Source: Dictyostelium discoideum (taxonomy: Eukaryota). From it: DNA of 64,000 nucleotides. Location of the stretch: NCBI GenBank assembly GCA_000004695.1, contig CM000153.2, positions 3,936,001-4,000,000 of the forward strand, read 5' to 3'. Each line of letters starts with the position of its first letter. The first letter of the stretch is position 1. The position numbers were made by a program, and so were the translations under genes. Of the stretch, positions 4,845 through 37,062 are shown piece by piece. Below the pieces are notes generated by a model. It was given only the letters and a program-made list of their open reading frames with translations. It had not been told where the DNA came from and made no database searches.

Positions 4845-5717
4845 ATGTCAAGTCCAAAATTTGATTCATATGATTGGGAAAATGATCCAAATTGGAAAGA
4901 ATTTACAGGTACATCAACTTCAATTAATAAATTAAAAGAAGAATATTTTAAAAAGAATATTGATCCAAATTATAAAAGTAGTAATAATACAACCACACAA
5001 AGACCATCAACTTCATCATCATCAAGAACATCATCATCATCAACTTCATCACCAAGAGCAACAAGAGCAAAACCAACATTTAGAAGATTTTTATATGGTG
5101 CATGGGTGATTGCACAAATATCAGTTATACTCTTTACATTATTTTATTTTATTAGCGGTAATCCATATTTCTTTTACAAAGCATTATTAGGTGCAACCAT
5201 TGCCTATTCAATACCAATTTTCAATACATTTGAAGGACGTAAACCTGATAGAGCATTGGCAGCCCAATTGGTGCAAGATGAGAATGCTCAATTCGTATTC
5301 TATTGTATGATTTTCTACTTTTTTGGTAGTTCATCATTGGTTTATCTTTTACCAAATTTCATTTACTCCTTCTTTCATATGTTGAAAATTGTGATTCCCT
5401 ATACATCAAGTGTACCATTCATAAAGAATCTTTTAGAGAAAGTTAATTCTACCAATGCCAAAGCCATTGATTTCGCAATTAGTGTCGAGATTAACATTGT
5501 TTTAATCGCTTTCTTTGGTATTTTCTCCTCATTTTCAAATATTTTATTGGTTTTCATTTATTTCCGTTACCTTAAATTACGTTATCAATTCTCTCAAAAA
5601 ATTAAATCAAAGATTAATGAATACAGTCAAATGGTTGATCAATTATCTGCTCATCCAAGTTGTCCTACCTTTATTAGAAATATTATCCCAAAAATTAAAA
5701 TGGTCTTATCTCGTTAA
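4845..5717 (+). CDS. TMEM33/Tts1/Pom33-family (UPF0121) ER membrane protein, 290 aa, single exon
   Basis: Multi-pass hydrophobic protein. The C-terminal block FIYFRYLKLRYQFSQKIKSKINEYSQMVDQLSAHPSCPTFIRNI aligns to human TMEM33 FIYYRFLTLRYSSRRNPYCRTLFNELRIVVEHIIMKPACPLFVRRL. Confidence 0.8.
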   Translation: MSSPKFDSYDWENDPNWKEFTGTSTSINKLKEEYFKKNIDPNYKSSNNTTTQRPSTSSSSRTSSSSTSSPRATRAKPTFRRFLYGAWVIAQISVILFTLFYFISGNPYFFYKALLGATIAYSIPIFNTFEGRKPDRALAAQLVQDENAQFVFYCMIFYFFGSSSLVYLLPNFIYSFFHMLKIVIPYTSSVPFIKNLLEKVNSTNAKAIDFAISVEINIVLIAFFGIFSSFSNILLVFIYFRYLKLRYQFSQKIKSKINEYSQMVDQLSAHPSCPTFIRNIIPKIKMVLSR

Positions 5718-6403: not shown

Positions 6404-6475
6404 TCCTTGTTGGTCTAGTGGTGAGGATTTTCGCCTGTCACGCGAAAGGCCCGGGTTCAATTCCCGGACAGGGAG
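6404..6475 (+). tRNA. tRNA-Asp (anticodon GUC), 72 nt
   Basis: Cloverleaf read directly: acceptor TCCTTGT/ACAGGGA, anticodon loop CTGTCAC, B box GGTTCAATTCC, followed by a CTTTTTT pol III terminator. Confidence 0.92.
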
Positions 6476-6479
6476 CTTT

Positions 6480-8335
6480 TTTAAAAAAACATAAAATCCG
6501 AACTTCGTAAAAAGAAATTCAACCAGATGTGATTAGATATTCATGCATACTATTATTTAATAAAGAAGATGATATCTCAATCATTAAAACAAACATTGAT
6601 GCTATAAAAGGTAGTAAGCATCCAATAAGAGCCTTCATCTCTGAATATAACAATAAAGAAATAAGAGATGTTAGAAAAAAAAAAAACACAAGTAATAAAA
6701 ACCAACAACTACAAATACAACTAAATCAATACCATCAACTCCACCAACAACTAATGCATCAACAACCACACCAATAACAACCACACCAATAACAACCACA
6801 CAAACAACAACCACACCAACAACAACCACACATCAATTACCAACAAGCAATACAACAATCTACAACCTAAACAAAACTACTACTACTACTACTACTACTA
6901 CAAAACCTATCAATAAAATTACTACAAGCAATGGTACCAAGTTTCCAATTGCCAGTAGTATTAGAAAATAATGGAACAATTAAAATTATTACTATGGAAC
7001 TGCAGAGGTAATCAATCAACCAACGCTAAGAATAAAACAGAAGAAACGATAAAAAGAATTGGCACTCAATTAGCACTCCTAACTGAAACTAATTTCAATG
7101 GATTCAACCACCACAAAACAATGTTCAACTTTGAAAGAATAGATCATGGTTCAGGTAAAGGAACTGGCATAGCAATAAAAAATAGAGATACAAGAAAAGG
7201 CCACATATCAATAAACTTCAAAGACGATGATGGTAGAATACTATCAATTAAATACAATTCCTTTAATTCTATCAACATATTATTGATCTATGCTCCAGCG
7301 ACTATATCTGAAAGAAACACCTTCATAATCAACTCAAAATCACTGTTTAAAAAATATAATTCAATCAACCATCAAATAATAGCAGGCGACTTCAATAACA
7401 ACCACGATTGCAACAGCTTCTTCGGTACTGAATTACGTAAAATAATAGACCAAGACATGCTACTAGATACTGGTATTGAAGAAAACACTCCAACATTTCC
7501 AAGATCAATGAAGAGACTAGATAGAATCTACTGTCATCCAACACTACTAAACCAAAATTCAAAACTGGTAGTCCACAACACAGTATTTAACAAATCAGAT
7601 CACTTTCCCATCACAATCACAATACAAACCAACAGTGAAACAACAACAACAACAACAACCAAACTAGAAAGACTCCCTTGGACATTATGTAAAGAAATTC
7701 TCAACAACAAACATATACATGATGGGTTATCAGAATTAATCAGTAAGAACAAAGATAAGATCAAATCAGTGGAGGAATGGACGAAATTTAAAAATAATGT
7801 CATCAGAGATTATTTAAAAAAAGAACAAAACAAAATAAAGAAAGAAAAGAACAAAAGAAAATACGTAATCCACAAATTACTTGGAAATAGTGATATCATT
7901 CCAAAGATGAGAAAAGAACTCAATGAAGAAATAAGTAGAATATTAGAAGAAGAAAGAAAGGTAAAAGCATGGGATATCAAATTAAAACTCCACCTGCATC
8001 AAGAAACACCAAGCAAATACCTCACAAGTATCCTTAAATCCAGAGCCAAAGATAAATCAATATTCCAAATAAAAGATAAAGATAATAAGACCATATCAGA
8101 TAAAGAGAACATAGCAAAAAGATTTGTTGAATTCTATCAAGATCAATATGAAGAGAAAGAAGATAACGAAGAAACCCACAAGAAGTTATTAGAAAAATGG
8201 GAAGTAGACGTTGATTTAATCAAGAAACTCGAGATAGACAGACCGATAAGAATACATGAAGTGACCAAAGCAATCAAAACTTCAAGTATCCACAAATCTC
8301 CAGGTTTAGACGGTATCAATGCACTATTCTACAAG
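6480..8335 (+). mobile_element. TRE3-like tRNA-targeted non-LTR retrotransposon, 5' portion. Short ORF1 (6529-6777) with a Thr-rich tail, then ORF2 (6971 onward) with an APE-type endonuclease and the start of the RT domain. The element runs into the assembly gap.
   Basis: It starts within about 50 bp downstream of the tRNA-Asp 3' end, in the same orientation. ORF2 begins MEQLKLLLWNCRGNQS...LALLTETN...HFPITITI (AP-endonuclease fold), and the RT onset is ...SPGLDGINALFYK. This is the classic TRE3 placement downstream of tRNA genes. Confidence 0.7.
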
Positions 8336-8435
8336 NNNNNNNNNNNNNNNNNNNNNNNNNNNNNNNNNNNNNNNNNNNNNNNNNNNNNNNNNNNNNNNNN
8401 NNNNNNNNNNNNNNNNNNNNNNNNNNNNNNNNNNN
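8336..8435. other. Assembly gap of 100 N between two converging retroelement copies
   Basis: Run of n characters. Confidence 0.99.
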
Positions 8436-9620
8436 GAGGTCATGTTAGGAGTCTTCTCTCTGTTTTCCGAGGATGAATGGATGTTAGTGCTCGTTTTGTT
8501 GGCATTGTCTTTTTGGATGGCGTTGGATGTTGTGGTAGTGGTTGTGGTGGGTTTGACAGATTGAGATTCTGCTTGGTTTTTGGGGGGAAGAGGTTGAGAG
8601 GATTTTTTTGATTGGGCTCTTTTCTCTTGGGTTGATTGTTTATCAGACTTATTGTTTGCTGGGTTGTTTGTTTGTTGTTGTGGTTTTGGTTGAGAGGATT
8701 TGATTGCTATCCTGTTTTGGATGTTGGGAGGATCATCTGTCATCTCATCTTCTAATGGTTCTTCCGTGTTGTTTGACTCTACTTTCTTATTTTTCTTTTG
8801 TGAGGAGTAGGTTTTGGTGGCCGTTCTGATGGTAAAGTTGGCGATTTCTGTATTGTGTTGGCCAGATTTCATTTGATCGCCTATTTTGCATTCTATTAGA
8901 CCGAATACTAGGAGGTGGTCGGTGGAGTATATAGTATGGTATATTGCATAGGGTATTTCTTCTGCAAAGGCAGTTTTGATGAGGGCATCCACTATTCCTG
9001 CCTTTTCTCTTGGAATTCTTACTCTTCCTGTGAGGACGTGGTAGTCTCTACTGGAGGTGATGAAGGTTCCCAATTTGCTTCTATCTCTAATGATATTTAG
9101 GAGAGATTGTTCGTTTTTAATCATCAGGTGGATCGTTTTTCTAGTTCCTTTGCCTATGTATATCTTGTCGATTGGGATATCGTAGTTTGAGAGTGTTTTT
9201 CTCATTTCTTCTAACCCCATGAGATCCATTTTGGGGAATTCGAGTGTAATTGGGTAGAATCCGTTGTTTTTCTCGTAGGTTGAGAGAGCAGTCATGTTCA
9301 ATATGGTCTCGCAGTATTTGGAGATGTCTTTGAGGCCTATTGATAATTTGGGGTAGGTCTCCTTTATCTCTGCTGTTTTTGTGGAGAATTCCTTAATGAA
9401 GTTCTCTGATGCCTCGTCCATATGGGTGGAGGGGTTGGCCATTTTAGCCGCGTCTGCGTAGGAATTCATCTCGATGGGATTCCTTTGAATCGGCGATTTG
9501 GTAAATTAGATCTGTAGATCGTGGTGGATTGGTGATTTTTTTTGAAAGATTGGTTAAAATTGACCGAGATTAAGGATAGAAAAGGATGAATTACTTTTCA
9601 CGTGTATCTTGTATCCTCTT
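8436..9620 (-). mobile_element. Second TRE-type element on the minus strand: ORF1 (9469 down to the gap, more than 340 aa) plus 5' UTR. Its 5' end is about 100 bp downstream of tRNA-Ser.
   Basis: The long ORF MNSYADAAKMANPSTHMDEASENFIKEF...TTTTTTTSNAIQK has Gln/Thr/basic-rich low-complexity typical of TRE ORF1 proteins. It is placed and oriented as for TRE3 (downstream of the tRNA, same strand). Confidence 0.6.
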
Positions 9621-9722
9621 GATCGCGGTGCGGTTTTTTTGTTTATCGGTTGGAATGTTGATGTGTTTGTTAAAAACCGAACTTCCTAAAGTATCAAAAT
9701 ACTTTACATCATATAAAATAAT

Positions 9723-9804
9723 CGACATCGGCAGGGTTCGAACCTGCGCCTCCTAGGAGATTTGATTTCAAGTCAAACGCGTTAGACCACTTCGCTACGA
9801 TGTC
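9723..9804 (-). tRNA. tRNA-Ser (anticodon UGA), 82 nt with long variable arm
   Basis: The reverse complement folds as GACATCG...anticodon loop CTTGAAA...variable arm TCTCCTAGGAGGC...T arm GCAGGTTCGAACCCTGC...CGATGTCG. Confidence 0.88.
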
Positions 9805-9854
9805 TTTGATGAAATCGTGTAAAAAAGTTACTTAATAAAATTAAAGATATTAAA

Positions 9855-10395
9855 TAAGCATATTTATTAATTATAGTTGACACATTTAAATAATATAATA
9901 ATAATAATAATAATAATAAAAATGCACGTAACCTTTTTTAATTTTCGCATGGGCAAAAACATTAACAAACTAATCAGAATACGAACAAACAACCAAGGAG
10001 ATGAAAAGAAACAAACACAAACAATCTCAAGAGCACTCCAATATTTCAGCAAACAATGGAACTCCCCACTCAACAAATCAAAATTACCACCCCACTTAGA
10101 CCAATTCATCACTACCATTAACACACTCTTTGGGTAAAAAATTAAATAAATAAATAAATAAATAAATAAATTAATAAATAAATAAATAAATAAATAAATA
10201 AAAAAACAATAATAAGAATATTATAAACAACAAAAATAATAGCAAGATAAAAAAAAAAAAAAAAAAAAAAAAAAATAATAAGAAAAAAAAGAAACTAACC
10301 CCCTCTTTCAGATGCCCTGTAAATATGTTACAAATAAAATGAGATCTATCATCTCAAGGAGAAGCAACTCAGAATTGAGCTATTCAATTCAAAAA
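9855..10395 (+). mobile_element. Heavily deleted TRE5-A-like fragment about 50 bp upstream of tRNA-Ser (head to head with it), ending in C-module plus oligo(A)
   Basis: The C-module motif aaaatgagatctatcatctcaaggagaagcaactcagaattgagctattcaattcaaaaaaaaa at 10335-10395 recurs at 14168-14235 and 14947-15010. The ORFs in 9867-10137 are probably non-genic. Confidence 0.5.
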
Positions 10396-10442
10396 AAAAC
10401 TTTTTTTTAATTTGGAAAAAATGGGGTAGAAATTTTAACCAT

Positions 10443-11271
10443 TTAAAAAAAAGACCATAACAGATAACTGTCCCAATCCATAAAAGTTTTTCCATATGCT
10501 TTTGCAATGTCAATTGATGGTGTTGAGTATATACCTTTCCCATATGCAAATCGGGTACATTTAGATAGTTGATAACCTTCTTTAGCTATTGAACTACACG
10601 AAATATCATTTGTACCATGGTATGAAACTAACCATTCATTTGGACCATTACAATGTCCTAGCCAAGTTTTTCCATCAGTTTCTGTGTTATATTTGTTTAC
10701 ATTTAATGCAAATCTCATCCAACCACATGGGCGAGTATATATATACTTCACTACCACGATAATGAACAATTGGATCTTTAATGTTTCTAAAATCAAAATC
10801 AAATGATGGCGAAGTAAAACCATCATTAATGAAATAAATAAAACTGGTACCACCTCCTTTTTAAACCAATTTCCATATGAATAGTTGATCCAAAGGTAAT
10901 GTTATAATCTGAAATTATATGACCATCTTCAAGTTTTTCCCCTCGATAAAATAATGTTTGAAATCTTACTGGTAAATCAATTTTATAACGAATTTTTTCT
11001 TTTAAATCTTTATCCAATTCAGATTCTTTAACTTGAAGCCAAAACGATTCACCATTTAATGTCTTTATGATGATATTTGTTCTAATTTCTATTCGATTAA
11101 TATTGCTAAGATCTGTATTGCTGGCTCATCCATTTGCAAAAAACGTTTATGAAAAGATTCAGTCTCTAAACCAATAAAACTATACCCCAAATAATTTTTC
11201 TTTTCACTTTCATAAATAACCAAATGATTAAAAATTGCTGATAATCCGAGAGTTAATAAAGATTTATCCAT
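10443..11271 (-). pseudogene. Frameshifted, 3'-truncated paralog of the Ubl/PARP-like gene at 35817-36755
   Basis: Three overlapping minus-strand ORFs in different frames are collinear with the intact gene: N-terminus at 11089-11271 (MDKSLLTLGLSAIFNHLVIYESEKKNYLGYSF...), ubiquitin-like segment at 10826-11017, and ART segment at 10443-10853 (YTRPCGWMRFALNVNKYNTETDGKTWLGHCNGPNEWLVSYHGT...GKGIYSTPSIDIAKAYGKTF). Homology ends around 10475, next to the TRE5 fragment. Confidence 0.75.
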
Positions 11272-11330
11272 TTTATCAAAAAATAGTAATAATATAAAAC
11301 TAAATTTTTTAATTTATAAAAATTATTCTA

Positions 11331-11519
11331 ATTTTAAATTGTTTGAGTCTTATTTTGGAATAGATCTATTCTTCAAACTCACTTGCCCAACTTTGACATA
11401 TGTGTTCAACAAAAAAAAATAAGTAAATAAAAAACTTTAAATTTAAAATTGTTAGAGTCCTTTTTTGGAATAGATCTATTTTGCAAACTCACTTGCCCAA
11501 TTTTGACATTTGTGTTTAA
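11331..11519. repeat. Two tandem copies of an upstream element of about 78 bp (11331-11408 and 11441-11519); a third partial copy sits upstream of the intact paralog at 36991-37062
   Basis: Consensus ttttaaattgtt.gagtcc(t)tttttggaatagatctatt.t.caaactcacttgcccaa.tttgacat.tgtgtt.aac. Candidate promoter or UAS for this gene family. Confidence 0.5.
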
Positions 11520-11679
11520 CTTTTCTTACAATTTTTTTTTTTTTTGTCATCTTTATTAAAAAAAAAAAAAAAAAAAAAAAGGAAATTGAGCTGTGTAACT
11601 CCTTTTTTTACAACCATCTCTAAATCTCCAACATTGGATTGTGAATTTAAAAATTATTTCTTTTTTTTTATTTTTAAAA

Positions 11680-11792
11680 GGAATCGAACCTACAATCTTA
11701 TCCTTAGAGGATCAAATAAATGGAGAAGAAGGGTATCGATCCCTTTACCTCTCGCATGCTAAGCGAGCGCTCTACCATCTGAGCTACATCCC
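11680..11792 (-). tRNA. tRNA-Ala(AGC)-like gene with an aberrant 3' half; probably a tRNA pseudogene or chimera
   Basis: The reverse complement starts GGGATGTAGCTCAGATGGTAGAGCGCTCGCTTAGCATGCGAGAGGTAAAGGGATCGATACCCTT, so 5' acceptor strand, D arm, AGC anticodon arm and a T arm are all intact. The expected 3' acceptor strand ACATCCC is replaced by CTTCTCCATTTATTTGATCCTCTAAGGATAAGATTGTAGGTTCGATTCC, which contains a second B-box-like GGTTCGATTCC. Confidence 0.45.
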
Positions 11793-11830
11793 CTTTGATG
11801 AATTTTTATAATTAACGTTGTATCCTAATT

Positions 11831-12107
11831 CCTATGGAAGAGATCGAAAAAAACAAACAACAACAACAATCTCTTTTTTTGATTATTTCATTTTTCATAT
11901 AAAAAAGACTTAAAAAACAAATAAATAAATAAATAAACTATTTTAAAAAGCCATCTTTTTACTTTATTGTAATTTATTATTTGTTTCGTTTTGAGAATTT
12001 TGCGTAGCAAAATTTTCAAAAAAAAAGCAAAAAATAATCAGATCGAAAAAAACAAACAACAACAACAATCTCTTTTTTTGATTATTTCATTTTTCATATA
12101 AAAAAGA

Positions 12108-12142
<35 letters not shown>

Positions 12143-13848
12143 GGAACCAAGTTAATTAGAAAATTTCCAGATTTTTAACTTTTTAAAGAAAAATAAAAAA
12201 GATAGAAAGAAAATAAAATGAAAATCACAAACAACACCACAAATATTAAGCAACACAAATGCCTACAAAAAATAAGCGAAATTGTGGATAAAACTCAATT
12301 AAAAAAAAAACAATTCAAATACGTCATAAACATCAATCACGAACCAGACGATAAAATAAAAAAAGATTTAGAAAAAAGTTTGGACAAAAAAGATGTTTTA
12401 ATCAAAAGTAATAATACATTCAAAATTCTCACAGACAGTATTAGTACAGTAATCTATTTTGTAAATATGTTTGATGCAGAATTAAAAGGACAATTTATAA
12501 CCACTATAAGACCAAAAAATATGTATACAGATTTTGATTGGTATAAATCACTCACAGAAATAGAATGGGTAATAGAAAATGAAGGATGTAAACTAATTAA
12601 ATCAGAAATTAAAGGCGAAACTCTAATTATCAAAACAGTGAAAAGAGTCGTAGAAGAATTTGACACTATCATTGAACTAGACAATCTAACATTAATTGGA
12701 CACTCCAACAAAGGATGGAGAGATCAAACCTCATTACCAGAAAATCAAGAAGAAAACAAAAATAAAAAACAATCAGATGAACAACAACCACAATCTACAT
12801 CAGAACAAATACCAAAACAAGGAAAAAGAACAATCATTATCCCACCAATCACATCCTCATCTAATGATAAAACATTTATGGCCCTAGATGATACAGCTCA
12901 AAAGGTAATAGAAGCATCACTAGAAAACGTAGATGAACTAACAAGAATAGAGAATGAGATCAATACACAATCGATAAACAATCAAGAAATTAAAACAAAA
13001 TCAGAAAAACCTATCGAACCACCATCTCCATACAATACACCAATAAAACAACACGGCGAAACAAAGGGACTAACAACGGAAGAAAAACTTAGAGAGGCAA
13101 ATGATATCTTCGACTTCACCAGCCCAAACACTGATGCAATAAGAAAAATAGAATTCCCACTTTCAATCCCTTCAAATCAATGGTTCTTCTCCTCTCCAAT
13201 AAAACATATCATGAGTTTCAGCCCAACCTATGGTACACCATCGAAAATTATCGATTCACCAAGTAAATTGTTAAACACACCAAAAAAGAAACAACAAGAC
13301 AAAACAAACAAGACCAACAAAACACCAGTCAAACCAAAATTGGGTGAATATGGACAAAAAAGCATAAAAACAAAAATGGATGAAGATATAGACAACTTCA
13401 ACAAGGAAATTCTAAAACAAATCAATAAATCAAAAAACCCCACAAACACACAAGACCAACAACACAACGAACAAAGTAAAGATCAGTTAGAAGACAAAAT
13501 AAACCAGAAACTTCAAAAGGTAGATAAAAATCTACCCCAAATAAAACTATAAAGAAAAACACAATAAGAATAGGTGTTTGGAACGTCCAAGGATCCAACA
13601 CCATCCAATCTGCCAGCATAATAAACACCGTTTTAGACAACAACAAGCTGGACGCAGCACTTCTAACTGAAACAAATATAAAAACAAATAAAATTTACTC
13701 AATAAATCAACAATATAAAAACAAAATAACACACCACGCACCAATTGATAAAACAGGACAAGGGGTGTCACAAATCATCATCAACACCCGCAATAGAACT
13801 TCCTAAACATCTCAAAAAATACAATAATTCACTCAGTACTTTCTATAA

Positions 13849-13905
<57 letters not shown>
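11831..13905 (+). mobile_element. TRE5-A (DRE) non-LTR retrotransposon about 40 bp upstream of the tRNA-Ala-like gene, facing away from it. It has a duplicated A-module (about 11831-12040 and 12043-12217), ORF1 at 12218-13552 (444 aa), the start of ORF2 at about 13565-13800, then truncation and oligo(A) at 13860-13905.
   Basis: The roughly 76-bp block gatcgaaaaaaacaaacaacaacaacaatctctttttttgattatttcatttttcatataaaaaagacttaaaaaa is repeated at 11832 and 12043. The ORF2 start translates RIGVWNVQGSNTIQSASIINTVLDNNKLDAALLTETN (APE endonuclease N-terminus). It is followed by a 46-nt A run. Position relative to the tRNA matches known TRE5-A behaviour. Confidence 0.75.
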
Positions 13906-13907
<2 letters not shown>

Positions 13908-14235
13908 CCAGGTTATTCAAAAAATTAAAAAAGATGGAAGGAAATTAAAGGGAAATTCACAAACAACACCACAAATATTAAGCAACACAAATGCCTACAA
14001 AAAATAAGCGAAATTGTGGATAAAACTCAATTAAAAAAAAAACAATTCAAATACGTCATAAACATCAATCACGAACCAGACGATAAAATAAAAAAAGATT
14101 TAGAAAAAAGTTTGGACAAAAAAGATGTTTTAATCAAAAAGACCCTGTAAAAAAAAAAAAAAAAATAAAATGAGATCTAGCATCTCAAGGAGAAGCAAAT
14201 AATAATTGCGTTATCCAATTCAAAAAAAAAAAATA
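13906..14235 (+). mobile_element. TRE5-A remnant: B-module end, first about 190 bp of ORF1 (a copy of 12225-12410), C-module and oligo(A)
   Basis: 13955-14148 is near-identical to 12225-12410. The C-module motif aaaatgagatctagcatctcaaggagaagcaa...caattcaaaaaaaaaaa follows. Confidence 0.55.
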
Positions 14236-15040
14236 ATTCCTATGGAATACTCTTTTTAATTTGTATTTACTTGTGTGACCCTTGAACACACAGAAATAAT
14301 TAATAATAAATAATAAATAATAAATAATATTATATCTCTTATATAATATAATAAAACTTCCGTTTGTGCACAATTTGGAATAAAACAACAATGAATTAAT
14401 TTTTATTTTATTTTACTATTTATTCTAAAATTAATTTTACTAAAGAAACCATTGGTAAAATTTCTGAGAATAAAGTAAGAATCTTTTATTTGTTAACGTC
14501 TTTTCAGTTACAGGTTTATTTCTATATTTGTATTTTACCAGGGATAAAAACTTTATATATTAATTTATGTCGCTTAATTATTCGCGATTATTACATTTTT
14601 TCATTTTTAGCCAAAATTTAGATTGATATTTTTAAGATTTTTAAAAAAATATATACATTTTATGTGTTTTAAAATGTATGATATAAAAAACTTAAGAATA
14701 TTAAATCAAATATGGTAATAATTAATAAAAAGTTTAATTTAATAAAAAATCATTAAGGAACTTACATTAAACCCTTCCGATTCTTTAACGAATAGAAGGT
14801 GATAAGGTAGAATTAGATATGGTAATTTTTGAGCAAAAGTATCGAATATTCCCTTTTGATGTAATGGTCCTGTCTGTAGATTACCCAAAGATGGTTATTA
14901 CAATTTTTTATTTTTTTGAATATTTTTATTTATCAGACTTTTATATTTAATAAAATGAGGTCTCAAGAAGAAGCAACTATCAATTGCATTATTTCATCAA
15001 AAAAAACTATCAAACTTTTATTCGCTCCCCTCAAAAAAAA
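14236..15040 (+). mobile_element. TRE5-like internally deleted element. Its 5' segment of about 370 bp is an inverted duplicate of 5985-6365, and it ends in a C-module-like end at about 14947-15010.
   Basis: It starts aattcctatggaatactcttttt..., sharing the cctatgRaa start with the TRE5-A A-module at 11831. The sequence is colinear, inverted, with the element upstream of tRNA-Asp. Confidence 0.5.
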
Positions 15041-33985: not shown

Positions 33986-34862
33986 CACTCAACGATCTGG
34001 TTTAATAAATTATTGGAGGTAACAAAGACTTTTCTCAAGGAGTTTTTAATGTCGGTTCCTCAATAATTGAATAATAAAAAAAATAAAATTAAAGAATAAT
34101 ATAAAACAATTAAAAAAATAGATTTTTTATCTTTTTTGTAGTCAAAATTAACATATTTCTAATTTGATTTTAAAAACATTTACCAATATTAATAAATTAA
34201 CATAAAATAAACTATAAACAAATTCATTAGGAAAATATCCGTTATTTTATTTTTTCACAACTATAATTTTTTTTGTTAAATTAATTGCCTTTTTTTTTCG
34301 AATTTTTAATTGTATTATTACTTTTGATTAAAACATCTTTTTTGTCCAAACTTTTTTCTTAATCTTTTTTATTTTATTTGTGGTCGGCTTCGTGATTGAT
34401 GTTGATGACATATTTGAATTGTTTTATTTTATTTGTGTTTTGTCTTGGCTTATTTTTTGTAGGCATTTGTATTGCATAATATTTGTGGTGTTTTTGTTTT
34501 TTTTAAAAGTCTTTTTATTTGAAAAATGAAATAATCAAATAAAAGAGATTGTAGTTGTTGGTTCACTAAAATGGAGCCTATTTTTTTTTTTTTAATGACC
34601 TCATCCCAATTTATTTAATAGAGGAATTCAAAGCGAATTTAATGATTAAATAATGGTAAAATAAAAAATTTGTTAGGTAGTAGGGCCACTCACCCCCCTT
34701 TTATTTTAAGAGTTTTTCAAAAAAAAAAAATTTTAAGTAAAAGCAAGGTATTGGATCGATAACATTGAGATATATATATATGAAAAATATATGATCTAAT
34801 TCGGGATTGTCCTTTTGTTTTTTAGTTTTAATTTATGTAAATATAATATTTTTTCAACAAAT

Positions 34863-34935
34863 GCCCAGATAGCTCAGTCGGTAGAGCGCAAGGCTTTTAA
34901 CCTTGTGGTCGGGGGTTCGAGCCCCCCTTTGGGCG
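34863..34935 (+). tRNA. tRNA-Lys (anticodon UUU), 73 nt, with no flanking retroelement
   Basis: GCCCAGATAGCTCAGTCGGTAGAGCGCAAGGCTTTTAACCTTGTGGTCGGGGGTTCGAGCCCCCCTTTGGGCG: acceptor 7 bp, anticodon loop CTTTTAA, T arm GGGGGTTCGAGCCCCCC. ORF 34815-35045 running through it is spurious. Confidence 0.9.
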
Positions 34936-35816
34936 AATTTTTCAAACCACTCAATATAAGTCGAGTGTTCGATTCCCTTCTAAAACTCAAAATAGAAACT
35001 GAAAAAAAACTTCAATGCTACATACCAACTATACAATTAATTTAAAATGTGTTAATTCAGAACATTCGTATTTAGAAACATAATAGGGTTAATAATGCAT
35101 CATATTTGGGTTTGGATATGCAATCAATATCGACAAACCTAAAAGAGATGAAAAACCAACAAATGGTACAAACTAGCTATTCAAGAATAAAAAAAGAAGT
35201 TAATTTTAAAATTAACTCTTTCAAAAGATCAGAACAATTTTAAAGACCCAAACAATTTCCTTAAACAAATAATCAAACAAATATTAACTCAAAATTTCAA
35301 AAAAAGAAAATAAATTAATAAAATAAACCTATTGCTGTTTATTTCCTTTAATGTGTAATCATTAATCAAAATAAAAAAAATGTTGACGTTCGAACTGAAA
35401 TGTTCTAACCGAATTCTTTGTAAAGAGTATATTAGAAAGTTTTAAAAGATAGTAAAAATACTCAATAGGCTGACAGATTTTATGTAACAAATAAATACTA
35501 TATGTAAATTACCTTAATAAATAATTCCAGAGTGGAGCCATTAATCTCTGATTTATGAGAATATGAATTAATTTGAGGAATTGAATTATTCTGTCCATTC
35601 ATTACCTTTTTGATTAATGTAAAATTGGTTTGCTCAAAATTTTAATTAAAAACATTATATTGTATCAATGATAATAAAAAAAAAATAAAAAATTTTATCA
35701 ACAGCATCTTTTGGTGCTCTAGAATGTTTTTTCATAAAACTATTTATTAAAATTTATAAATTGATTATTTTTTACTATAAATTATTGTCCCACACAAGCT
35801 ATATTATTTTAAAAAT

Positions 35817-36755
35817 CTATACTTTCTTAATGCAAACACCATATGGTCTAATATCTGCGTCATTTGGAGATATCCAATATTGAATATTGTCTATTTTTAT
35901 TACAGTCTTTGGATTGACTCTATTTTGAAATACTATTACATAATGACAATTATCTTTTTTAAAAGTTCTTCCATATGTTTTTGCAATGTCAATTGATGGT
36001 GTTGAGTATATACCAACCCCAAATGCAAATCCGGAACAACTTGATAGTTTATAACCTTCCATAGCAATTGGATTACAAGATTCCTCTTTTGTACCATGGT
36101 ATGAAACCAACCATTCGTTTGGACCATTACAAAATCCTAGCCAAGTTTTTCCATCAGTTTCTGTGTTATATTTATTTATATTTAATGCAAATCTCATCCA
36201 ACCACATGGGCGAGTATATACTTCACTACCACGACTATGAACAATTGAATCTTTGATGTTTGTAAAATCATAATCAAATGATGGCGAAATAAAACTATCA
36301 TTAATGAAATAAATAAAACTGGTACCACCTCCACCTCCTTTTAAACCAATTTCCATATGAATAGTTGATCCATAGGTAATGTTATAATCTGAAATTAGAT
36401 GATCATCTTCTAGTTTTTTCCCACAATAATATAATGTTTGAAATCTTACAGGTAAATCAATTTTATAACGAATTTTTCCCTTTATATTTTTTACCAATTC
36501 AGATTCTTTAACTTGAAGCCAAAATGATTCTCCATTTAATGGCTTTATTATGATATTTGTTGTTCTAATTTCTACTTGATTAATATAGTTAAAATCTGTA
36601 TTTGTTGACTGTTCATGTTGCAAAAAACGTTTGTGAAAAGATTCAACCTCTAAAGCAATAAAACTATACCCCAAATAATTTTGCTTTTCACTTTCATAAA
36701 TAACCAAATGATTATAAATTGCTGATAATCCAAGAGTTAATAAAGATTTATCCAT
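35817..36755 (-). CDS. Ubiquitin-like domain fused to a PARP-type (H-Y-variant) ADP-ribosyltransferase catalytic domain, about 312 aa; the likely start is MDKSLL at 36755
   Basis: Ubl: NIIIKPLNGESFWLQVKESELVKNIKGKIRYKIDLPVRFQTLYYCGKKLEDDHLISDYNITYGSTIHMEIGLKGG, followed by a GGGGT linker. The ART segment WLVSYHGTKEESCNPIAMEGYKLSSCSGFAFGVGIYSTPSIDIAKTYG aligns to PARP1 [50 protein letters not shown] (H-G-S/T ... G-x-G-I-Y-F/S ... S-x-x-Y). The C-terminal NIQYWISPND lacks the catalytic Glu, so a mono-ART type is inferred. Confidence 0.8.
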   Translation of the reverse strand: MDKSLLTLGLSAIYNHLVIYESEKQNYLGYSFIALEVESFHKRFLQHEQSTNTDFNYINQVEIRTTNIIIKPLNGESFWLQVKESELVKNIKGKIRYKIDLPVRFQTLYYCGKKLEDDHLISDYNITYGSTIHMEIGLKGGGGGTSFIYFINDSFISPSFDYDFTNIKDSIVHSRGSEVYTRPCGWMRFALNINKYNTETDGKTWLGFCNGPNEWLVSYHGTKEESCNPIAMEGYKLSSCSGFAFGVGIYSTPSIDIAKTYGRTFKKDNCHYVIVFQNRVNPKTVIKIDNIQYWISPNDADIRPYGVCIKKV

Positions 36756-36990
36756 TATATCAAAAAATAATGATAATAGCAATAGTAAACTAAATTAGAA
36801 AATTTTATTAATAGAATAAATTTTTTTTTTTTATAAAAAATTAGTAACCTTAAGATTTCAATACATGACTAAATTTAAATAATTAACTTAAAAGGTAATT
36901 TAAAACAATATAAATCTCTTATAATTTATAATATTAAATAAAACTATATTAAATGTAAACAACTTAAAAAAATAAAAAAAAATTTTAAAA

Positions 36991-37062
36991 TTTTAAATTG
37001 TTCAAGTCCTTTTTTGGGAATATTCTGAAAAATCGATTTTGACATTTTCATTTTATTGTCAA
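36991..37062. promoter_or_regulatory. Partial third copy of the element of about 78 bp found upstream of the pseudogene (11331-11519), here about 240 bp upstream of the intact Ubl-ART gene
   Basis: ttttaaattgttcaagtccttttttgggaata...ttttgacattt matches both ends of the 11331/11441 units. Confidence 0.4.

Follow-up and report, generated by a model that had tools for sequence, protein, structure and literature searches.

Retrotransposons of the TRE type, which target transfer RNA (tRNA) genes, are usually described as integrating "safely," avoiding insertional damage. One of them, TRE5-A, inserts about 50 bp upstream of tRNA genes with its 5′ end toward the tRNA 5′ end; its TRE5-A.2 form has the structure AB-ORF1-BC, and its C-module is common to TRE5-A and TRE5-C at about 78% identity (PMC3159450). 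Here we describe a damaged gene copy that sits among such elements in a 64,000-nucleotide (nt) stretch of the Dictyostelium discoideum AX4 genome (GenBank assembly GCA_000004695.1, contig CM000153.2, positions 3,936,001 to 4,000,000, forward strand). We call the whole stretch the window, and all positions without a contig name refer to it. The intact relative of the damaged copy, elsewhere in the window, belongs to a family of ubiquitin-like (Ubl) and PARP-like proteins that a published survey of the PARP family omits (PMC2964712).

We are highly confident that the damaged copy, copy A, is a non-processed pseudogene and one of three young paralogs with Ubl and PARP-like domains in the D. discoideum complex. 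A first-pass annotation of the window had likewise taken it for a decayed paralog of an intact gene, copy B, and this description held up. The two copies are as follows.

10481 to 11271, minus strand: copy A, the pseudogene body, a decayed paralog of Q54MD2 and positional ortholog of the ACTFIW_013067 locus
35817 to 36755, minus strand: copy B, the intact paralog of 312 residues (Q54MD2/EAL64394.1, "ubiquitin domain-containing protein" in AX4)

Copy A is frameshifted and truncated

We aligned the two copies with each other. blastn matched 10481 to 11306 (minus strand) to 35960 to 36796 at 88.3% nucleotide identity over 841 columns, and the global alignment followed one colinear path only, from 11306, 35 nt upstream of the ATG, to 10481. 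The pieces of copy A are thus colinear with the intact gene, as had been claimed. A tblastn comparison with an intact relative likewise returned four colinear minus-strand segments, covering residues 1 to 46 (11271 to 11134), 49 to 145 (11125 to 10859), 147 to 192 (10857 to 10720), and 184 to 270 (10742 to 10482).

Relative to copy B, copy A has a net loss of 1 nt within 11120 to 11134, a loss of 5 nt in a run of Gly codons at 10859, and a gain of 4 nt (TATA) at 10746; a further loss, of 3 nt at 11082, keeps the frame. The three frameshifts (−1, −5, and +4) leave four reading segments, in frames 0, 2, 0, and 1.

11134 to 11271, minus strand: segment 1, N-terminal region, residues 1 to 46, frame 0, inside a 60-residue open reading frame (ORF) at 11089 to 11271
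10859 to 11125, minus strand: segment 2, linker and Ubl domain, reached only past the net 1-nt deletion
10747 to 10857, minus strand: segment 3, following the Gly run, reached past the 5-nt deletion
10481 to 10742, minus strand: segment 4, two-thirds of the PARP-like domain from its start, including the YHGT and GIYSTP motifs, reached past the TATA insertion and ending at the homology break

The first-pass annotation had described the copy as three frameshifted ORFs (11089 to 11271, 10826 to 11017, and 10443 to 10853). All three are present, but they represent four reading segments: the ORF at 10443 to 10853 reads the segment at 10747 to 10857 out of frame and, beyond the homology break, continues through filler DNA (10400 to 10480) to a stop codon at 10443 to 10445. 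Once the frames were corrected, copy A was 83% identical to copy B in amino acid sequence, within the 75 to 85% estimated earlier. The N terminus was 91% identical, the linker 47%, the Ubl domain 85%, the part following the Gly run 88%, and the PARP-like part 78%.

Homology ends abruptly at 10481, corresponding to residue 264 of the 312 in copy B. The last 48 codons are missing and DNA for them is absent; this lost 3′ part carries Q277-N278-R279, W294, and Y305, all invariant in 59 homologs. All indels of copy A are surrounded by coding sequence that can be matched base for base to intact relatives, and splicing offers no rescue, because any intron would remove conserved codons. With these lesions, copy A cannot encode the protein.

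The parent gene and its family

Copy B is one uninterrupted ORF of 312 codons, and the gene has no introns. Its residues 68 to 136 matched the ubiquitin family (PF00240) with 52.5 bits, above the Pfam gathering score, and its C-terminal part matched PARP (PF00644) with 16.8 bits, below the cut-off of 26.7. When a profile of the C-terminal domain, about 165 residues long, was compared with PDB sequences, the only matches were to PARP13, PARP10, PARP16, PARP15, and exotoxin A; they were weak (E 0.01 to 0.3) and paired the YHGT and G-x-G-I-Y sequences with the PARP His and Tyr motifs. We therefore assign the domain a PARP-like ADP-ribosyltransferase fold, and the parent's earlier label, Ubl plus ADP-ribosyltransferase, is supported at the level of the fold. 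H220 and Y250 are invariant in the family, as are the Q-N-R motif and a W. At residue 292, the candidate for the third catalytic position, 34 of 59 sequences have E but the discoideum subfamily has Q, the equivalence of residues being taken from sequence alone.

In this family the Ubl consensus barely differs from ubiquitin; its last residues are LRL-GG(G), and the conserved domain of about 165 residues comes next. Genes of this kind form tandem arrays in Dictyostelium, with a double-length member of 593 residues; a second tandem array is ACTFIW locus L005. The range of the family is patchy, taking in dictyostelids, Glomeromycota, the ascomycetes Metarhizium and Arthrobotrys/Drechslerella, Hydra, and bdelloid rotifers.

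The same locus in other genomes

In the genome designated ACTFIW, locus L001 is syntenic with window positions 800 to 21800, with about 92% identity in both flanks and the same three tRNA genes as AX4 in unchanged order and orientation. The order there is a CAP/peptidase gene, tRNA-Ala, a paralog we call P5 (ACTFIW_013067), tRNA-Ser, a second paralog, P4 (ACTFIW_013068), tRNA-Asp, and TMEM33. Copy A was 89.4% identical in nucleotide sequence to P5 (L001 7326 to 8187), 88.3% to copy B, and 85.6% to P4. This similarity and the gene order identify P5 as the positional ortholog of copy A. The first-pass annotation had pictured copy A as parked in a retrotransposon cluster. That reverses cause and effect: since ACTFIW has the gene between the same tRNA-Ala and tRNA-Ser, copy A lies at its native site, to which the tRNA genes drew the TREs.

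The state of the copies in this block varies. The P4 gene of ACTFIW is intact, with 317 residues. ACTFIW P5 is full length but dead, having lost 2 nt in the linker and acquired two in-frame TAA codons. In ACTFIR (L007 12185 to 15743, GCA_054859385.1), the block from tRNA-Ala to tRNA-Asp has the opposite orientation from that in AX4 and ACTFIW, the P5/A copy is reduced to codons 222 to 316 plus an inverted scrap, and P4 has a stop codon and a frameshifted stretch, so that both copies in the block are dead. Among the annotated proteins of sequenced relatives we found no intact ortholog of copy A, and copy B was intact in all the genomes that we looked at. The three lineages thus lost this copy in three unrelated ways while keeping copy B, which points to a dispensable birth-and-death gene rather than to a single death caused by a TRE.

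In Dictyostelium citrinum, a tRNA-Ala gene and a long terminal repeat (LTR) retrotransposon are all that the interval from TMEM33 to the CAP/peptidase gene (L008 10891 to 17020) contains; a Ubl-PARP-like gene is missing from it, as are tRNA-Ser and tRNA-Asp. A protein search returned no close B-type homolog from this species. The gene block is thus restricted to the D. discoideum complex, or else D. citrinum has lost it.

Two further observations concern transposons at this locus in other genomes. ACTFIR has a TRE5-A 48 nt upstream of tRNA-Asp. In ACTFIT (L004 1 to 6014, GCA_054883475.1), the flanking DNA is 99.3% identical to that of AX4; there, about 3.3 kb of extra retroelement sequence lies between the two TRE3-like fragments, and a large ORF encoding reverse transcriptase stands in place of the tRNA-Ser gene and copy A of AX4. 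These differences from AX4 suggest recent transposon turnover at a hot spot.

tRNA genes and retrotransposons around copy A in AX4

The surroundings of copy A contain the following features.

9723 to 9804, minus strand: tRNA-Ser(UGA), the downstream neighbor of copy A and target of the TRE5-family fragment; also in L001 and L007
11721 to 11793, minus strand: tRNA-Ala(AGC), the upstream neighbor of copy A
6404 to 6476, plus strand: tRNA-Asp, farther out, beyond tRNA-Ser
11680 to 11690, minus strand: external B box, GGTTCGATTCC, a sequence reading, about 30 nt downstream of tRNA-Ala and conserved in ACTFIW (L001) and ACTFIR (L007)
11840 to 14233, plus strand: TRE5-A.2-type retrotransposon with a duplicated A-module, a 444-residue ORF1, no ORF2, a C-module, and oligo(A)
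9924 to 10399, plus strand: TRE5-family 3′ fragment with an ORF end, an A-rich 3′ untranslated region, a C-module-like tail, and oligo(A) at 10391 to 10399
10400 to 10480, no strand: filler of 81 nt between the copy A break and the TRE5-type tail

The element upstream of tRNA-Ala agrees in structure, position, and orientation with published TRE5-A.2 (PMC3159450). Its A-module duplication (11841 to 11937 versus 12040 to 12136) is 95% identical, and the product of its ORF1 (12218 to 13552) is the same as a multicopy AX4 protein. The element is flanked by a target-site duplication of 14 bp, TAATTCCTATGGAA, at 11826 to 11839 and 14234 to 14247. Its start lies 46 nt upstream of tRNA-Ala, and it faces that gene head to head.

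The fragment at 9924 to 10399 has its 5′ side toward tRNA-Ser, the same relative orientation as the TRE5-A.2-type element. Its last 68 nt (10332 to 10399) are 89.7% identical to the TRE5-A tail at 14163 to 14230, and 10249 to 10399 matches a TRE5-A 3′ end in L007 at 80% over 164 nt. With only 80 to 90% identity in the C-module and a different ORF end, it differs from TRE5-A and probably belongs to another TRE5 subfamily. Between the fragment and tRNA-Ser, the DNA at 9805 to 9923 is AT rich and matches low-complexity DNA only. Searches with the filler and with 9852 to 10135 in the window, L001, L003, L004, and L007 gave low-complexity matches only, apart from one AT-rich match of 22 nt that was wrongly oriented.

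The slot that P4 occupies in ACTFIW is filled in AX4 (6524 to 9714) by two convergent non-LTR elements, one with an APE endonuclease ORF (6971 to 8476, plus strand) and the other with a 381-residue ORF (8324 to 9469, minus strand). Both lie downstream of a tRNA gene, a position typical of TRE3 elements, and we therefore regard the pair as TRE3-like. No trace of P4 is left in AX4 at 6524 to 9714. Farther out, the TMEM33 homolog at 4845 to 5717 is 100% identical to AX4 Q54ME7; with copy B, an exact match to Q54MD2, and the ORF1 product, it identifies the window as AX4.

A transposon fragment is also found near copy B. About 1.3 kb from its 3′ end, a TRE5-A A-module/5′ fragment (34300 to 34563, minus strand) lies upstream of a tRNA-Lys gene (34862 to 34936, plus strand) in the expected head-to-head orientation. 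Both paralogs therefore adjoin tRNA genes that are transposon targets.

How copy A may have been lost

On the reading we prefer, copy A occupies its native slot between tRNA-Ala and tRNA-Ser; in other strains the next slot, which ends at tRNA-Asp, holds P4. The AX4 copy decayed through small indels and lost its last 48 codons, the latter probably by a deletion or rearrangement upstream of tRNA-Ser, in a zone repeatedly struck by TRE5-family insertions. We infer that the truncation struck a copy that was dispensable by then.

Several observations weigh against parts of this account. Values of the ratio of nonsynonymous to synonymous divergence (dN/dS) were 0.61 to 0.73 for copy A against the other copies of its cluster and 0.40 against the FIY ortholog of copy B. 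For comparison, a pair of B orthologs gave 0.39 and intact family pairs gave 0.39 to 0.69, all from few substitutions. Since the values for copy A are below 1 and those for intact members are also high, they are no more than suggestive of relaxed constraint. As for the truncation, no target-site duplication of the fragment at 9924 to 10399 was recognized by eye, its 5′ junction was not found, and the 81-nt filler had no convincing match in the window or in the loci searched. Finally, no lesion is common to the lineages, and it is possible that a functional ancestor was inactivated three times independently and that in AX4 the truncation came first.

The last point bears on the first-pass suggestion that a TRE insertion or an associated deletion killed the copy. 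Put most strongly, a TRE5-associated deletion would have been the first inactivating event, with the frameshifts following later. The truncation does remove invariant residues of the catalytic domain, at most 82 nt away from a TRE5-type 3′ end, and the lesions of copy A are absent from its ACTFIW and ACTFIR orthologs, so that the common ancestor may have been intact. In two other lineages, however, the lesions that killed the copy are unrelated to these: the ACTFIW ortholog is untruncated and dead for other reasons, and the ACTFIR ortholog is a 3′ remnant. The 3′ end of copy A had been said to be lost where the copy abuts the TRE5 module. The loss is real, but the break lies 81 nt from the TRE5 tail, and the oligo(A) of the fragment adjoins filler and not the gene, which makes the junction of gene and filler a separate event. 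The order of events is also not readable from a single sequence. We therefore consider it unlikely that a TRE5-associated deletion struck first, and we return to the preferred reading, in which the truncation befell a copy that was already dispensable.

A repeated element upstream of the copies

The first-pass annotation had noted two tandem copies of a 78-bp element ahead of copy A and a partial copy ahead of copy B. The repeat is real, with a length of 77 nt.

11330 to 11406, minus strand: proximal copy of the element, from the repeat alignment, with the palindrome AATAGATCTATT
11440 to 11516, minus strand: distal copy of the element, from the repeat alignment
36988 to 37047, minus strand: partial copy of the element, 235 to 295 nt upstream of the copy B ATG
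11272 to 11306, minus strand: proximal upstream region alignable with the intact gene, the blastn alignment reaching 11306/36796

The two copies upstream of copy A are 89.6% identical over 77 nt and recur with a period of 110, as parts of a tandem 110-nt unit. A 26-nt core of the element occurs exactly twice in the window, against an expectation of 0. Upstream of copy B, on the gene strand, there is a 30-nt match at 36988 to 37017 (90%, E 8e-5) and, colinear with the element, a 12-mer at 37036 to 37047. Fuller versions are found upstream of the B orthologs in ACTFIR and ACTFIY, the one in ACTFIR with a 22-nt internal duplication of its own. ACTFIW P5 retains just the 3′ 40 nt of the element, half of it having been deleted, and P4 retains little. 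We saw the tandem doubling in AX4 only. We did not find the element upstream of four more distant family members, those of the second tandem array. "Family-specific cis-regulatory element," the term used for it earlier, is thus too broad: the element is common to the young B/P4/P5 subfamily only, and any regulatory role is putative.

The upstream DNA of copies A and B can be aligned only in the element and in the 35 nt beside the ATG. Because both still align, the duplication evidently carried upstream DNA with it, as the first-pass annotation had proposed. The ancestral duplication would have taken at least about 300 nt of upstream DNA along, and the 77-nt, G/C-containing element would be common to the copies because that sequence was included; later, in AX4, the 110-nt unit with the element would have been doubled in tandem. 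We infer that the element is a promoter remnant, which we regard as its best reading.

A quite unlikely alternative is that the repeat is a selected functional unit, a small RNA gene or a transcription factor site, and not a leftover promoter. It would account for the element being the sole alignable stretch upstream of A and B besides the 35 nt at the ATG, for its unchanged strand and location with respect to the genes across four genomes, and for AATAGATCTATT, a perfect 12-bp palindrome. The palindrome, however, is broken in all B copies, and the element is half deleted in ACTFIW and absent upstream of the distant family members. Rfam searches of the whole window at gathering thresholds and of the upstream region at E values up to 10 returned four tRNAs and noise only. 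Both element copies on both strands folded no better than shuffled sequences (z −0.76 to +0.84), and a DUSE-like small-RNA promoter motif gave no match. The conservation itself may have a simpler source, as G/C islands align more readily than AT-rich, slippage-prone DNA and the B/P4/P5 paralogs are young, with a synonymous divergence (dS) of about 0.13.

We also considered an origin of the repeat from a TRE3 3′ end and rejected it, since a TRE3 downstream of tRNA-Ala would carry its poly(A) on the strand opposite to the one seen at 11558 to 11580 and since the element also precedes copy B, where there is no tRNA gene. The roughly 160 nt that separate the distal element from the external B box (11517 to 11677) have no counterpart in ACTFIW. 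They contain T23 (A23 on the plus strand, the run at 11558 to 11580) and a short motif, GAAATTGAGCT, that resembles a TRE5 tail.

Strain-variable gene state and high dN/dS are typical of conflict or immunity genes. Only tentatively, and as a reading that we consider unlikely, would we go further and propose that B, P4, and P5 form a very young subfamily limited to the D. discoideum complex, with rapid turnover, of which copy A would be one snapshot, aided by tRNA-targeted retrotransposons and with the 77-nt element and its AATAGATCTATT palindrome as a shared regulatory module.

Residual function and origin of copy A

The 60-residue ORF at 11089 to 11271 is annotated in AX4 as a hypothetical protein (DDB_G0286019/Q54ME4/XP_637890.1). 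It might be taken as a sign that the locus still functions, either through this small protein or through unrecognized introns. The 46 N-terminal codons are indeed 91% identical to those of copy B, and in ACTFIW the annotation yields an intron-bridged model of 243 residues. That model spans the lesions of P5 by means of introns and in doing so loses invariant residues, such as D163-F164-T165. In copy A the indels, of 1 to 5 nt, lie inside a base-by-base alignment in which introns would cut conserved codons, so that the intron rescue considered in the first-pass annotation fails, and the DNA lacks the 48 codons at the 3′ end. A functional locus is thus very improbable.

Even more improbable, to the point where it can be set aside, is a processed retro-copy mobilized by a TRE and inserted beside the tRNA genes: copy A sits among non-LTR retrotransposons, and TRE5 ORF2 can mobilize RNAs in trans (PMC3159450), but the copy keeps upstream noncoding sequence homologous to the parent's promoter region, has no 3′ poly(A) of its own, and occupies the same syntenic slot in ACTFIW and, within the inverted block, in ACTFIR, the loss of introns being uninformative because the parent is intronless.

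Significance and comparison with known systems

The main value of these results lies in annotation. DDB_G0286019 is the first fragment of a dead Q54MD2 paralog and should be treated as a pseudogene. A literature search for Q54MD2, XP_637902, EAL64394, DDB_G0286019, and Q54ME4 found no paper. The locus is also a case in which tRNA-targeted TREs occur where one gene copy has been truncated and another fully replaced. The affected copies look dispensable, and the "safe integration" view of TREs is therefore not overturned.

The parent family is uncharacterized and may merit attention of its own for its combination of a GG-ending Ubl with a short PARP-like domain carrying Q-N-R. Compared with PARP domains of the H-Y-E class, such as those of PARP16, PARP10, and PARP13/ZAP, the domain is far shorter, at about 165 residues, and its Pfam score is below threshold; it has an invariant Q-N-R, and its Glu-like position is Q in the discoideum subfamily; any activity is putative. 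The arrangement recalls the Ub-eS31 and Ub-eL40 fusions in that a near-ubiquitin Ubl ending in LRL-GG(G) is followed directly by the next domain. It differs from them in the 65-residue N-terminal region ahead of the Ubl, and cleavage after the GG would be hypothetical.

Copy A itself is a real but ordinary non-processed pseudogene. Like other non-processed pseudogenes of birth-and-death families, it has retained upstream DNA, acquired frameshifting indels, and been truncated, and its state varies among strains from intact through decayed to deleted. Nothing essential sets it apart from that known kind; what its position among tRNA genes targeted by retrotransposons adds is transposon-associated rearrangement.

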